Made by a program: the position numbers
Shown here: one piece after another, positions 28,901 to 34,900 of the stretch
How the letters are laid out: each line of letters starts with the position of its first letter
How positions within the stretch are numbered: the first letter of the stretch is position 1
Source of the DNA: a plasmid
Strand: one strand, 5' to 3'
Length of the DNA stretch: 64,000 nucleotides
NCBI RefSeq assembly: GCF_057098645.1
Contig: NZ_JBXSPU010000002.1

Positions 28901-31900
28901 TTGGCGTCCCTAATGGGGTGAAGTACCAGTTTGTCACCCAGCCGCAACCGGAAGAAAGTGATTATTAACGCGTATAGCGCCTGACTGAACAGGAGAGGAA
29001 TAATGGGCCATGTCGATTATACCCGGACACTCCGGGTCCAGCTTTACGATGCCAGCCGCTTTCATGATGGTGCGACGGCGGAACAGGCTGGTGAACTGCA
29101 CACCGTCGCATTCAGTAAACCCGCGATTGCCGATGATATTCAGAAAATTGTCGATACCACTGCCGAGGTGCTCGGTAAACGGTACAGCGTTAACGTATTC
29201 TCGAACTGAGCGCCAGTGAAGGAGGTATTCAGAAAACCTCCTTCTTTCTATATTTTATATCAAAAACCGTCAAATTTAATTCCGCCGCCAGCCATGTTCG
29301 GCAAGCTTAAAATAAATTCATTCTATTTTCCGGGTGCCATTTTTAGTTATTAGAGTAATTTCCAAAATATTTCGAGTCGGGTTGTTTGGGGCAAAGTCCG
29401 TATTGATATAATAAGCTCACATACCTGGAAGGAGTTTTTTATGAATAAGCCTCTGGTTAGCTTCGCGGAGTTATCCGGCAATGCTATTAATGTTGCGCGT
29501 CAGTCTGTTATCGATATGGAAATGGACGCAACCCGGGAAAAGATTGGAAAGGCTCGTTCGTTATTCCACTCAGGTATTCATCGTGCCGTGAATGGCTATC
29601 CGCTGATTCAGTCTGCGGCTAACCAGCTGGCTGTCATTAAGCGACTCCTTGGCGACACGAAGTACCTCGATGCCTGTATTACCGAGAATCTTTGTATGTT
29701 CTCGCCAGAGGGTTATCTGTACCTGTTTATGCAACGCCGCTTCATTAATGAACCCGTGGCCTGATGGACGGGACCTGAACATTATTCCATTTAAAAGGTG
29801 ACATTATGAAACCATTCGGACTTGCCGGAAAACCCCAGCCTGAGCCCTGCGGCTGTTGCTGGTACCACCCGGAAGATTGTCGCTACGCTGCCGCGAAGAC
29901 GCTATATCGCCGCAGCCAGCGTAAGGCTGAGCGCCAGCGTCAGCGTGCGTCTATTACCCGCGCCCTGGCCGAATAACGCCAGCCGTAAAGACTGCTCATG
30001 GCGGATACCTCACCCTGTTATCTGGCGGCAGTATCCGCTGTGAGTGCTTATGCTAACCTACGTCTCCACGTCGTTTAATGATGTATCCCGATATTACCGG
30101 AGTAAAGATGAAACTCAGTCAGCTGGAGGTGGGGATGACCGTCTGGTCACTCTCCCGGACCAAAATGGGAAACACCACCATTAAGACGGTGACTCTTCAT
30201 TCTGTCGTCATCAAGGAAGTACACGATAATCACGTGATTGCCAGCTGGAATGGCAATGCACCGCGTCGTTTCGGGGAAACGGCTATCACTGGTTGGAAAA
30301 AGGAAAAGCCACTGCTGATCCGCGACCGTTCCGGAAGTGCCCGACTGGCGACGCGGGAAGAAAAGGCACGAATTCTGGATACAAAATAGCGCCCGCCCAT
30401 CGTATCGGTCTGCTGTTCTGGCCGTTTCCTCCCCACAGAACCGGAGGGAACCAAAGCCGCTTACTGCATCCCACCTTCTTGCTGTCATTTCCCTCTTTTT
30501 TTAACCGTTTTTTTCCAGCCTTTAACCGACAAAACCACTCCTGCTCACCTGGTATGATCAGCTTGCGTCTTACCATTATTTTTCAGAGAGAGGAGAGGGT
30601 ACATGAATCAAACAGAAACGGGCCCGTCCGGATTTACCGAAACAACGGTCGATGAAGAACGCATAGCCATCAGGGTAATGATTGGTGATGTGGTCGGCCG
30701 CTACCGTAAGCAGGTGCCGCCTGATCGCGTCCAGAAAGCTACTTTTGAAGTGAACGGCGGGCTGCTCATGGCGCTGTTACTGGCTCTGCTGATGCTGGTC
30801 TGTATTATTCAGCGTCTGGCAACTGGCGACCGCCTAATGAGCTTTACCGGAGAGCCTGACGTCCGGGATATTCAGTTTACCCTGATGCTGGTCATCGAGT
30901 TCGCACTTGGCATGGTTGTCTGGTTTCTGATTGCAATGGGGGAGTTTTCCCGCCCCTGGCTCTACCGCCTTACTCCGGCAAAACCCGTCTGGCTTTTTGA
31001 TGAAGTGGAGGATGCAGACCTGGTACTGCTTTCCGGCAATCCCTTTATCAAACGCTGGCTTCACAAGGAAATCTTGAAAATCAGGAGGCTGACGTATACC
31101 CGCCTCGATGAGGAACTGGAGAAAATCGCCCATTACCCGGACAGCCTCCGGCACAGTAGTGTTCGTGCTCACCGTTTGTCACTGATCGCTGGTACGAAAA
31201 CGGACTGATTACAGCCGGAAAGAAGCGGGGGAACAGGCGAGCTGGCGTCGTTGAGTGTTGAGATTCGAATCCGTCTGTTTAATCAGTTATTACGTCAGAC
31301 ACCTGCTGTTACAGCCTGCGAAGCAGCAAAACCTGAAATACTTACTTATTAAATATTTAGGAGAACGATCTGTTCGTTTAAAAGGGGCGGGGTGGTATAA
31401 TAACCTCGGTGCTGGAGGCTTTTGCCCCAGCCAGCAGATTCACTGTTTGACTGTGGTAAAAAGCAGAAAGCCCCGAGTAATTTTTTCAAATTAACCCGAG
31501 GCCCCTGTATGCTAGTCACATTCAGAGTAGCCTCTTACCCGCTTAAATGCAAGGAGAAGAAGGCCATGAAACTGCCGAACCAACCCGTTGTTTTGTGCGT
31601 ATTGATAGTATGTCTTACGCTGTTGATATTCACCTGGCTTACGCGCAATTCGCTCTGCGAACTGAGGCTAAAAGACGGTACACGGGAAGTGTCGGCTGTG
31701 ATGGACTACGAATCCGGTAAGTAGCTGAAAGAGGGGGGGCGACCCCCCTCATTTCAGAATGTGGGCCAGCAAGCTAATGGCACCTTTAGAAAAGGGTTTC
31801 TCCGGTCGGGGAAACCCTTTTTTCCTTTCTATCGTCGGCTAAACCCTTGTTAGTTTGTACATGCAGGAAATAGCTACCCGCCGCCTTGTCGAATTTCAAG

Positions 31901-34900
31901 TTTTCTGCTTTTCGACGACACGGCGCAATTTCCGTACCTGGCTGGCCGTGGAGAGAGTACCGGTCCGTGGATGACACGAACTGGCCTTATCATCGGGCTG
32001 TAGCTCATAGGACATAGCCAGTGCCGTCAATGCTTCTTCGGCTTCCTGAAGCGATTTAATGGCCGTTTGGCGCATCTCTGTGCGGTGTTCAATCATGGTA
32101 ATGTTTGTCCTCGTTGCACAGTTCCTTTTAGATGCAAGCTCAACGCCTGCATTAAAATTCATGCCGTCTTTTTTGGCTTCGGTGGCTCGCTGGGAGGCGA
32201 TATGGTCGGTAATCTGCGGGTGCCTTCGATTACAGCCGTATCATTTGTGGTCTGCCGGGAAAGCTTCATCGGATACTCCTTTGCCCGGAGCCGCCGGGGC
32301 GGGGGGGTGTTCACACCTTGTGTTTGCTGCAACGGCATTTTTTCAGGCAACCGGGAAAGTAACTTTTTCGACATATTCCTGCTTTATGTACCCGCTTTTC
32401 ACACTAAAGTGAAATTTGCCCTCCTTAGCGAGAATTTAAAACGGACGGATCGCGTACTATAACCCCCGGAAAAAAAGTTACTTTTTTTTCGCCTCAGGTT
32501 ATTAGGAAATGAATCGAACCTGGTATTGTTGTTTTGTAGCGAACAAACACCCTAAACGAAAACTAAAAGGAAGGCACCATGTCCACTGTCGAAAATGATG
32601 TAAAAACCGCTAACAACGATATCAGCCTGCGCACCTACCTGGAGCGTACCGGTAACGGCGCACGCAAAAGCAATGGTCTAGTCATTAACCCGGCAGTGGT
32701 CGAAGAGGAAGAGGGGTTTAACACCCGTACTGCTGGCATTGGGGAGAGTTACTACTCATTACCTGACGTGGTAGCCCACCTGAACAGCCTGAAAGAGTCC
32801 TACAAGATCGATCCTTTAAGCGTACAAGCTATTGTCGTACAGATTCTGAATGGCCGTCCGGTCCTGCGCCAGGGAGCATGCCGTATCCGTGCCGTCGCGA
32901 TGGCAAACATCGAGCTGGCAGATGAAGGGCGTGAATTGATCACGTTAATTCGATGCGAGGAGTTTCGCGGTAGCCGCGCCAGTGCCGAGCAGTTTACGCT
33001 GGACGGTAACTCAAATCTGGCTCTGTCTGTCGTAGCTGAGGCGCTCTCCATCAAACGGATGGTTGAAGACGCGGAAGAACCCAAAACGTTCGCTGAACTG
33101 GCGAAGCGTCGCGGTAAAACCGAACAGCACCTGCGTCAGATGGTTCGCGTCCTGGATCTGCCTGAAGCCCTCCAGGCCATGTTGGTGAAGGGTGAAGTGA
33201 GTATGTATGTCGCGCTGGATGAATACCTTTACAGCGGCGATGAAGCGGTCAACAACATCACCAAAGCCATTGATGTTTATGGTAAGGCGACGGCCAAAAC
33301 CCTGAAATTCGTCAAAGCTGGCAACATTGATGCAGCGATGAAGCCGAAAGCAGCCATCGTGCCGGACGCAAATGCGACCCCCCCGGAAACCACCGTGACT
33401 GAACAAACGTCCGGCGAAGGTACTAACGATGAGACCACCCCACCGCAGCTGGTGGACGGGAGTGCGGGCACTAACCCGGAGCCGACCCCGGAAAGGACCC
33501 CGGCACCGCAGATGAAAGACCCGGTCAAAACGCCAGAGCCTAAAGCTGTGTCGGTCTCCAGCGTACTGAACAAAAAGACCGTGACGACGATTGCGGACAC
33601 GGCAATCCCGCTGTTTTCGCGTATTGCGGAAGAAGCTAAACAACGGGCCGCTAAGAACCTCAGCGACGATACTTACACTCTGGTGCTGACCAATGACGAG
33701 ATGAATGCCATTTGTAAAGCTCACGGCGATCTGACGCAGTACCTGCGTAAACATGCTGAAAAGCAGAACAAGGGCCAGGCATGATTTCCTGACTGACCCC
33801 GCCACCCGGTAGGGTCGGTTACCACCACTGGTCAAGGAGAAACAGGGCAATGAAGAATACCGCAATCAACATCAGCACGAAGAAACCATTGCAGACAGTT
33901 AAGGACCCGGTGACCCGGGTCAGCATTCATTGTACGGCTAAGGATGAGAAGGGCGCAGACGTGGAAGTAAATATTCTCGACCTGGAACAGCACCACACCA
34001 CCAACGAAATCAAATTGACGTTTGGCGGTTCCCCTTCCCAGGCGCTGACAATGCTCAGCAGAGTGATGGTCGTGCTGCAACAGCAGGCGGCCGAAGAACT
34101 GCAACGGAATTCCTGCTCCCGTTTGCAGTGAACACCGAAAGGAGCAATGGCACGACGTTATGGATAGAACATGGATTTATAATTTTAAAGGACTCAGTGC
34201 TGGCACTAATTATGTTAAAGCGATTAATCTCTGCGAGTGAATGTGTAGCTACTAGAATTTGTTGGTCTGGCAAAAAACTCCCTAAAAACGCACCACCTAT
34301 GGAAGCTAGTTAATAAAATCTGCTACCTATTTACATAATTCCACATGCGTCCAATTTTTAAGATTGTCGGTTAATTTAAAAAATTTTCAGTGTAGGTTAT
34401 TAGCCAGCAGCCCGGGTTTTATATAATACCAAAAACATAGGAGGTATTATGAAAACCAATCTGGCTTATGCATCTAATTGTTCTGACTCTCTTTACTCCT
34501 TTATTTATCCTGCACTGCAACAACGCTCTGGAACCGAGAATGAAAGTCTCTATCAGCAGGCTATTTCCGCCTGCCATACTCCGAAATAAAAAATGAAAAT
34601 GGGCGGTTACTACGCTGGCCCCTGGCAGATGCTGTTTAACGCATGGTGTCACAACCGTGTACCCAACATTGCCGTACTGCCGGTATTGGCCCAGCAGTGT
34701 TTCTCCTCTTTGCAATGCGAAGAGCTGATCGCCAACTGGCACTAATCACATTATGCCCTGCTGGTGGATACTGGCAGGACTGGAGCACCTATAAATGTAT
34801 AAATATGACAGGAACCGGCAGACGTTCAACTTGATCAATGCGCTTCAGCCGGTCTATCGCAACAATGGTGGCGGTTTGTTTGAGTTCGACCGCAGGAAGC

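Follow-up and report, generated by a model that had tools for sequence, protein, structure and literature searches.

In all likelihood, two adjacent short open reading frames (ORFs) of an IncHI1-type plasmid, here called B1 and B2, are one 98-codon gene that was broken by a nonsense change in the R27-type lineage and is now most likely a pseudogene, and a third short ORF upstream of them, ORF A, is a bona fide gene. All three lie on the plus strand of the window, by which we mean the whole 64,000-nucleotide stretch of plasmid DNA analysed (NCBI RefSeq assembly GCF_057098645.1, contig NZ_JBXSPU010000002.1), and were read directly from it with the coordinates and sequences that the initial annotation had given: ORF A at 29806..29976, B1 at 34449..34589 and B2 at 34593..34745. 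That annotation had put them forward as plausible micro-protein genes that a length cutoff had overlooked. They had not in fact been missed, as each already carries a coding sequence (CDS) from the NCBI Prokaryotic Genome Annotation Pipeline (PGAP), namely WP_164997028.1 for ORF A, WP_005046460.1 for B1, and WP_250696374.1 or WP_005046456.1 for B2. All three are thus present in RefSeq as hypothetical proteins, and what is new here is the correction of the two-gene reading of B1 and B2 together with the notice of two uncharacterised families. The region holds 87 ORFs of at least 30 amino acids in 7.5 kb, and since so many short ORFs arise by chance, only comparative evidence can decide which of them are genes.

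Such evidence is plentiful for this region. Over positions 29400-35300, the window has 100% identity to numerous large IncHI1 plasmids from Escherichia, Salmonella, Klebsiella and further genera, among them tet(X4) plasmids such as pSY3626_190k_tetX, and R27 itself is 100% identical over 551 bases around the B locus. Judged by these matches, the backbone that carries the three ORFs is that of an IncHI1 (R27-type) resistance plasmid.

B1 and B2 share a reading frame (34593 - 34449 = 144 = 48 × 3), and between them lie only a TAA stop codon (34587..34589) and one AAA codon. At the same position, a single 297-bp CDS is annotated in an IncHI1A/IncP plasmid (L006), in three IncHI2 variants (L007-L009) and in three IncHI1 records (L011-L013). 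The TAA of the window aligns with CAA, encoding Gln47, in every intact homologue, and B1 and B2 taken together align with these seven homologues codon by codon. The intact IncHI1 allele, WP_000856245.1 (L011-L013), differs from the window within the gene only at 34587 (T>C, stop to Gln) and at 34509 (C>T, Pro21 to Ser); both differences alter the protein, and none is synonymous. The second of these falls in codon 21 (34509..34511), which reads CCT (Pro) in the window and TCT (Ser) in the intact allele, and which is a variable position in the family. In each half of the 98-codon gene dN/dS (the ratio of nonsynonymous to synonymous substitution rates) is ∼0.1, in keeping with purifying selection before the split. 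At the level of the aligned loci, these comparisons show that there was one ancestral gene, extending over 34449..34745 (297 bp), which a single C>T nonsense change interrupted in the IncHI1 majority lineage. The expectation of the initial annotation that the frames would be conserved in related plasmids therefore does not hold for B1 and B2 as separate frames, which are a single continuous ORF in the homologues, so that the proposed neighbouring micro-proteins correspond to the N- and C-terminal parts of a single conserved 98-amino-acid product.

The interrupted allele is the common one. A 63-nucleotide probe centred on the stop was found exactly in 197 of 218 IncHI1-type PLSDB records, R27 among them; the remaining 21 differ, and of those that were examined, three have CAA and one is an assembly full of errors. 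L014, an apparent variant, was ignored because its many homopolymer indels stem from assembly error. On the metagenome contig L025 (1986-2155), the 5′ half resembles the IncHI1A/IncP sequence and the 3′ end is identical to the window, TAA included; this contig represents either an assembly chimera or a recombinant through which the stop has entered another lineage, and for this reason its protein P0041 (contig coverage 0.43) was not counted as a second, independent stop. Neither of the two RefSeq records examined (R27 and pSY3626) has the B locus annotated as a pseudogene.

The signals for expression are those of one gene. A Shine-Dalgarno (SD) sequence, AGGAGGT (34439..34445), stands 3 nucleotides 5′ of the ATG at 34449 and is invariant in all lineages, and upstream of it lies a perfect -10 hexamer, TATAAT (34422..34427). 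The stretch ATATAATAC, which includes this hexamer, is invariant across six aligned IncHI sequences, and from this conservation the hexamer is a likely promoter of the 98-codon gene and of those that follow it, even if a consensus promoter scan passed over it for its weak -35 element. The N-terminal fragment B1 (46 amino acids) is the only half with its own ribosome-binding site; the bases 5′ of B2 are CCATACTCCGAAATAAAAA, without an SD sequence. Of the strong ribosome-binding sites that had been claimed, the one at B1 thus stands and ORF A has an SD-like AGGTGA, and none is present at B2. The C-terminal fragment has 50 amino acids if started from the ATG at 34593 or 48 if started from the ATG at 34599, and its annotated start varies accordingly, with R27 using 34593 (WP_005046456.1) and pSY3626 using 34599 (WP_250696374.1). 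These two ATGs are Met49 and Met51 of the intact IncHI1 allele, where they are internal residues, and were therefore not created after the stop.

The surroundings of the 98-codon gene were compared across the IncHI lineages as well. The gene is preceded by a 317-nucleotide AT-rich spacer (34132-34448) with a G+C content of 36%, against 49% for the island of small genes around it, and this spacer ends in the invariant TATAAT. Since the upstream neighbour varies by IncHI lineage and the two genes that follow directly, of 145 and 181 amino acids, are constant in the IncHI1, IncHI1A/IncP and IncHI2 loci examined, the 98-codon gene appears, from its gene order, to head a conserved block. On the opposite strand, an antisense ORF of 107 amino acids (34419..34742) was rejected as a gene, being open only in IncHI1 and interrupted by 3-4 stops in the other lineages.

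To place the 98-amino-acid protein in a family, a profile of 12 intact proteins was searched against 1.84 billion representatives, giving 31 matches. Many of these are distant relatives encoded by a single ORF of 90-108 amino acids that spans both halves, and on the metagenome contigs that carry them, BLASTP matches their N-terminal halves to B1 and their C-terminal halves to B2. No naturally split member of the family was seen in the distant lineages. The best-conserved motif, KTxKQ(K/R)xxxAGxYxGxWQxLFNAW, straddles the break, and the stop replaces the Gln of this motif, which is Gln47. AlphaFold (AF2), run on a 26-sequence alignment, predicted a single compact domain of five helices (residues 13-40, 45-50, 58-67, 73-80 and 87-97) with a predicted local distance difference test score (pLDDT) of 92.1 and a predicted template modelling score (pTM) of 0.80; the prediction was poor with close homologues only and became confident once distant relatives had been added. 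Codon 21, where the window has proline, is within the first and longest of these predicted helices. The protein gave nothing above threshold in Pfam, NCBIfam or PADLOC, nor in the Protein Data Bank (PDB) by sequence profile; the AlphaFold model had no fold match in the PDB, and tblastn found no relatives in phages. The copy in the window is a disrupted member of this 98-amino-acid IncHI family, with homology colinear over the ∼95-residue domain and the frame interrupted. It has the locus, promoter, SD sequence and 297-bp length of WP_000856245.1 and the other IncHI orthologues, and departs from WP_000856245.1 in having TAA for CAA at codon 47 and Pro for Ser at codon 21.

ORF A encodes the 56-residue protein MKPFGLAGKPQPEPCGCCWYHPEDCRYAAAKTLYRRSQRKAERQRQRASITRALAE, which holds PCGCCWYHPEDC followed by an Arg/Gln-rich tail and has a cluster of cysteines at C15, C17, C18 and C25. 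BLASTN found the locus in ∼1,260 plasmid records that fall into three identity bands, and annotated orthologues of 58 amino acids occupy the same position in the IncHI1A/IncP plasmid pECO-109b (93% amino acid identity) and in IncHI2 plasmids (73%). The segment MKPFGLAGKP.PEPCGCCWY..EDC and the tail YRR.QRKAERQRQR are near-invariant in these orthologues. In the comparison of the three lineages, dN/dS by the Nei-Gojobori method was 0.064, 0.135 and 0.11, and the 18 differences of the closest pair are distributed as 4, 0 and 14 over the first, second and third codon positions. Out of the six frames, only that of ORF A is open in all three lineages, the others having stops in at least one. Identity to IncHI2 is 70% within ORF A and 38-40% in the flanking intergenic DNA. 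The SD-like AGGTGA (29796..29801), read directly from the window 4 nucleotides 5′ of the start codon, is part of the same picture, as AAAGGTGAC is unchanged in the alignment of IncHI1, IncHI1A/IncP and IncHI2 and the intergenic DNA around it diverges.

Relatives of ORF A are found outside plasmids too. A full-length hidden Markov model match was obtained to phrog_10765 of PHROGs v4 (E=4.4e-5, 24.6 bits, residues 1-55 against profile positions 1-55 of 70), which the IncHI2 orthologue also matches (E=6.8e-4), and tblastn found homologues in 41 Ounavirinae phages at 32-35% identity and full coverage. When plasmid and phage proteins are aligned, M1, K2, P3, G5, G8, K9, C15, G16, C17, C18, Y27, R35, R36, K40, R43 and Q44 are invariant. 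Like ORF A, the phrog_10765 proteins of Felix O1-like phages (such as SUSP1, Moogle, Sf13 and Silverhawkium) have MKP[FY]G..GK.....CGCC and a basic tail; unlike ORF A, they are 70-80 amino acids long, lack the fourth cysteine (C25) and are encoded inside a phage tRNA cluster. The phage genes (L017 1501-1713; L018 1501-1743) sit between tRNA-Leu and tRNA-Arg, and in SUSP1 the annotated CDS overlaps tRNA-Arg. A tRNA link for ORF A itself was considered and dropped, there being no tRNA gene in the window. Searched by profile, 5.8 billion proteins yielded members only of the IncHI-plasmid and Ounavirinae types, and nothing was found above threshold in Pfam, NCBIfam or PADLOC, nor by profile search among PDB sequences.

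Because its frame is conserved, it is under purifying selection and it has phage homologues, ORF A is on this comparative evidence a genuine conserved small gene, which bears out the earlier suggestion of a real micro-protein whose frame is kept in related plasmids, here in three IncHI lineages. It would be translated from the conserved AGGTGA and is probably co-transcribed with a 107-amino-acid gene that ends 42 nucleotides upstream. The product would begin with a cysteine cluster, MKPFG..GK.....CGCC, and continue into a tail rich in Arg and Gln that is probably helical, and from this composition only we infer that it may be a small metal- or thiol-cluster protein binding nucleic acid or a host protein in plasmid establishment. 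Next to ORF A, the 93-amino-acid hypothetical protein at L003 1227-1508 (the homologue of window 30108-30389) carries the PLSDB/RGI label 'Brucella suis mprF, defensin resistant mprF, identity 100%', which looks like an annotation artefact.

For the 98-codon gene, the course of events that we envisage begins in the R27-type lineage, where a C>T transition turned the Gln47 codon CAA into TAA. Ribosomes would start at 34449 and end at 34587-34589, releasing a 46-residue fragment without helices 3-5, and at most a fraction of them may re-initiate at the ATG at 34593 or at 34599, neither of which has an SD sequence; the C-terminal half could arise in no other way. The outcome would be a recent nonsense pseudogene that PGAP calls as two hypothetical proteins. 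Within the one-gene reading, loss of function is on balance the more probable outcome, because the stop removes a conserved core-motif residue of a single-domain protein, because no other lineage encodes the halves separately, and because the only other change from the intact allele puts a proline inside a long predicted helix. In this respect B1 and B2 resemble other nonsense pseudogenes called as two short CDSs, that is, same-frame ORFs split by one stop, each labelled a hypothetical protein. They differ from ordinary split-call pseudogenes in that an ATG follows the stop by 3 nucleotides, which makes re-initiation conceivable.

That ATG weighs against our overall reading, as does the status of the TAA allele, which is the majority allele in IncHI1, was already present in R27 (a plasmid isolated in 1961) and has undergone no further decay. 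So does the fact that metal or nucleic-acid binding by ORF A was proposed from composition alone. The lack of decay is little informative either way, since the IncHI1 backbone is >99% identical across records. In IncHI2 plasmids, ORF A is found truncated beside an AAA-ATPase gene (L005 ∼950-1020), and the 98-amino-acid gene is found cut by ISKpn26 (L010 ∼1050-1140). Such occasional destruction implies that both genes are dispensable for plasmid maintenance.

The alternative that fares best, improbable as we consider it, is that the gene was split and its function kept, with B1 made from its strong SD sequence, B2 made by termination-reinitiation at the ATG at 34593, and the two fragments reassembling non-covalently into the five-helix domain. 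Such a scheme would make use of the ATG just past the TAA, and the break does lie where a Lys-rich segment joins the long N-terminal helix to the helices of the C-terminal part; in addition, the allele shows no other lesions and occurs in ∼90% of the IncHI1-type records. Yet a backbone as clonal as this one takes away the meaning of absent decay, B2 has no SD sequence, and the stop takes the place of a conserved Gln within the best-conserved motif of the protein. Moreover, the halves occur as two genes in no distant lineage, and Met49 and Met51, being older than the stop, are not compensatory.

A bolder pair of proposals goes further, and we regard it as a long shot. In it, the dominant IncHI1 allele would encode a naturally split protein, whose two pieces, made by termination-reinitiation at TAA-AAA-ATG, would come together as the five-helix domain of a fold-orphan and otherwise uncharacterised family that occurs in islands of small co-oriented genes on plasmids and metagenome contigs. 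ORF A, for its part, would represent a new class of ∼55-80-amino-acid proteins with a CGCC cluster and an Arg-rich region, found in IncHI plasmids and in the tRNA clusters of Felix O1-like phages and acting on host nucleic acids or defence during entry.

It is very unlikely that ORF A is instead open by chance, or acts in cis as a leader for which the peptide sequence does not matter. In favour of that view are the shortness of the frame, the lack of a known domain and a perfect hairpin of 15 bp, CTCATGGCGGATAC...GTATCCGCTGTGAG (29994-30045), which lies just 3′ of ORF A and has no T-run. However, a dN/dS of 0.06-0.13 with a third-position bias is that of a protein under selection, and the amino acid motif is kept even in phage homologues of 32-35% identity. 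The hairpin has a folding z-score of -1.7, which is not significant, is partly kept in IncHI1A/IncP and not in IncHI2, and was rejected as a functional element; the surrounding intergenic DNA is only ∼38% identical to IncHI2.

Recoding of the stop, by read-through or by a bypassing frameshift that would yield the full-length protein, has next to no probability. The site is in an A-rich tract, and codons 46-50 of the intact homologues read AAA CAA AAA AAG AAA with a run of seven A (L006 ∼1047-1061; L007 ∼1087-1101; corresponding to window 34584-34598), so that the IncHI2 and IncHI1A/IncP homologues have at codons 47-49 an in-frame A_AAA_AAG, the heptamer of dnaX-type -1 frameshifting. This heptamer is absent from distant family members and from the window, which reads AAA TAA AAA ATG, leaving A_AAA_ATG after the stop. 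By eye, in a look that involved no dedicated analysis, neither a stimulatory SD sequence nor a hairpin was seen, and in the homologues the 15 nucleotides upstream of the heptamer likewise showed no dnaX-type SD stimulator. A frameshift cannot restore the frame in any case, the stop itself being in frame, and a UAA with A as the next base terminates in the ordinary way. As a separate observation, the database variants P0017, P0018, P0021-P0023, P0025 and P0026 are all frameshifted exactly at the A7 run, by +1 or -1 nucleotide, which could point to a hotspot of mutation, to frameshifting at a low level or to sequencing errors in the homopolymer.

The original proposal of B1 and B2 as two independent micro-protein genes in an operon, for which it can be said that both frames are open, adjacent and separately annotated by PGAP, is hardly credible and is refuted by the homologous loci, given the shared frame, the single 98-amino-acid ORF in every outgroup and in an IncHI1 sub-lineage, and the distant family members that are single proteins of 90-108 amino acids.

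For the databases, WP_005046460.1 and WP_250696374.1/WP_005046456.1 are best read as one disrupted gene, and the intact WP_000856245.1 is the form to study, as the representative of a family with neither a Pfam model nor a PDB fold match. The practical value of this correction is small, and the understanding of IncHI plasmids is unchanged by it.

The window has other features as well. Its left part, 1-23900, is unlike the layout of the IncHI1 tet(X4) reference and has F-like transfer genes, with Rfam matches to AS-traI at 10949, AS-traG at 20882 and AS-pc02 at 5830; it also contains an ALIL frameshift pseudoknot of the IS3 type at 16576-16692. The presence of this non-matching part suggests a cointegrate or hybrid plasmid. 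On the minus strand, a putative MOBH relaxase operon occupies ∼37.8-47.9 kb. Within the small-gene region there is a hok/sok type I toxin-antitoxin system (31407-31724), with an Rfam match to sok at 31407-31568 (89 bits), a 52-amino-acid Hok ORF at 31567-31724, which is another product of less than 60 amino acids, and a partial DUF5431 (Mok-like) frame.

In the PGAP annotation, the region around the three ORFs is a run of co-oriented genes for hypothetical proteins, with a Hok toxin and a 'DNA-binding protein' as well, and the genes of this island include hok/sok, a ParB helix-turn-helix (HTH) protein of 401 amino acids identified by Pfam, DUF957, DUF3085, DUF905, HNH and PAPS-reductase (3′-phosphoadenosine-5′-phosphosulfate reductase). 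The distant relatives of the 98-amino-acid protein are likewise encoded in unidirectional arrays of small hypothetical genes, near PerC, a C5 DNA methylase, a PAPS reductase and DUF4942; the contigs on which these relatives lie have no neighbour in common with the window. On the IncHI1 nick site, on the transfer direction or leading region of R27 and on these ORFs themselves, the literature searched gave nothing usable.

The known systems that these arrays most recall are the anti-defence islands in the establishment or leading regions of conjugative plasmids (Samuel et al. 2024, PMC11541004). Unlike those islands, the one in the window has no known anti-defence, single-stranded DNA-binding protein (SSB) or PsiB homologue among the island proteins scanned: in ten of them no recognised anti-defence, SSB, PsiB or methyltransferase gene was found, and only hok/sok and the ParB-HTH protein were recognised. 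Since ORF A and the 98-amino-acid protein belong to a type of island that has recently yielded establishment and anti-defence genes, they are reasonable candidates for functional screens. As in the islands of Samuel et al. 2024 (PMC11541004), the window has a long array of small, co-oriented and mostly uncharacterised genes, and the gene arrays in which the distant relatives of the 98-amino-acid protein are found resemble those islands as well.

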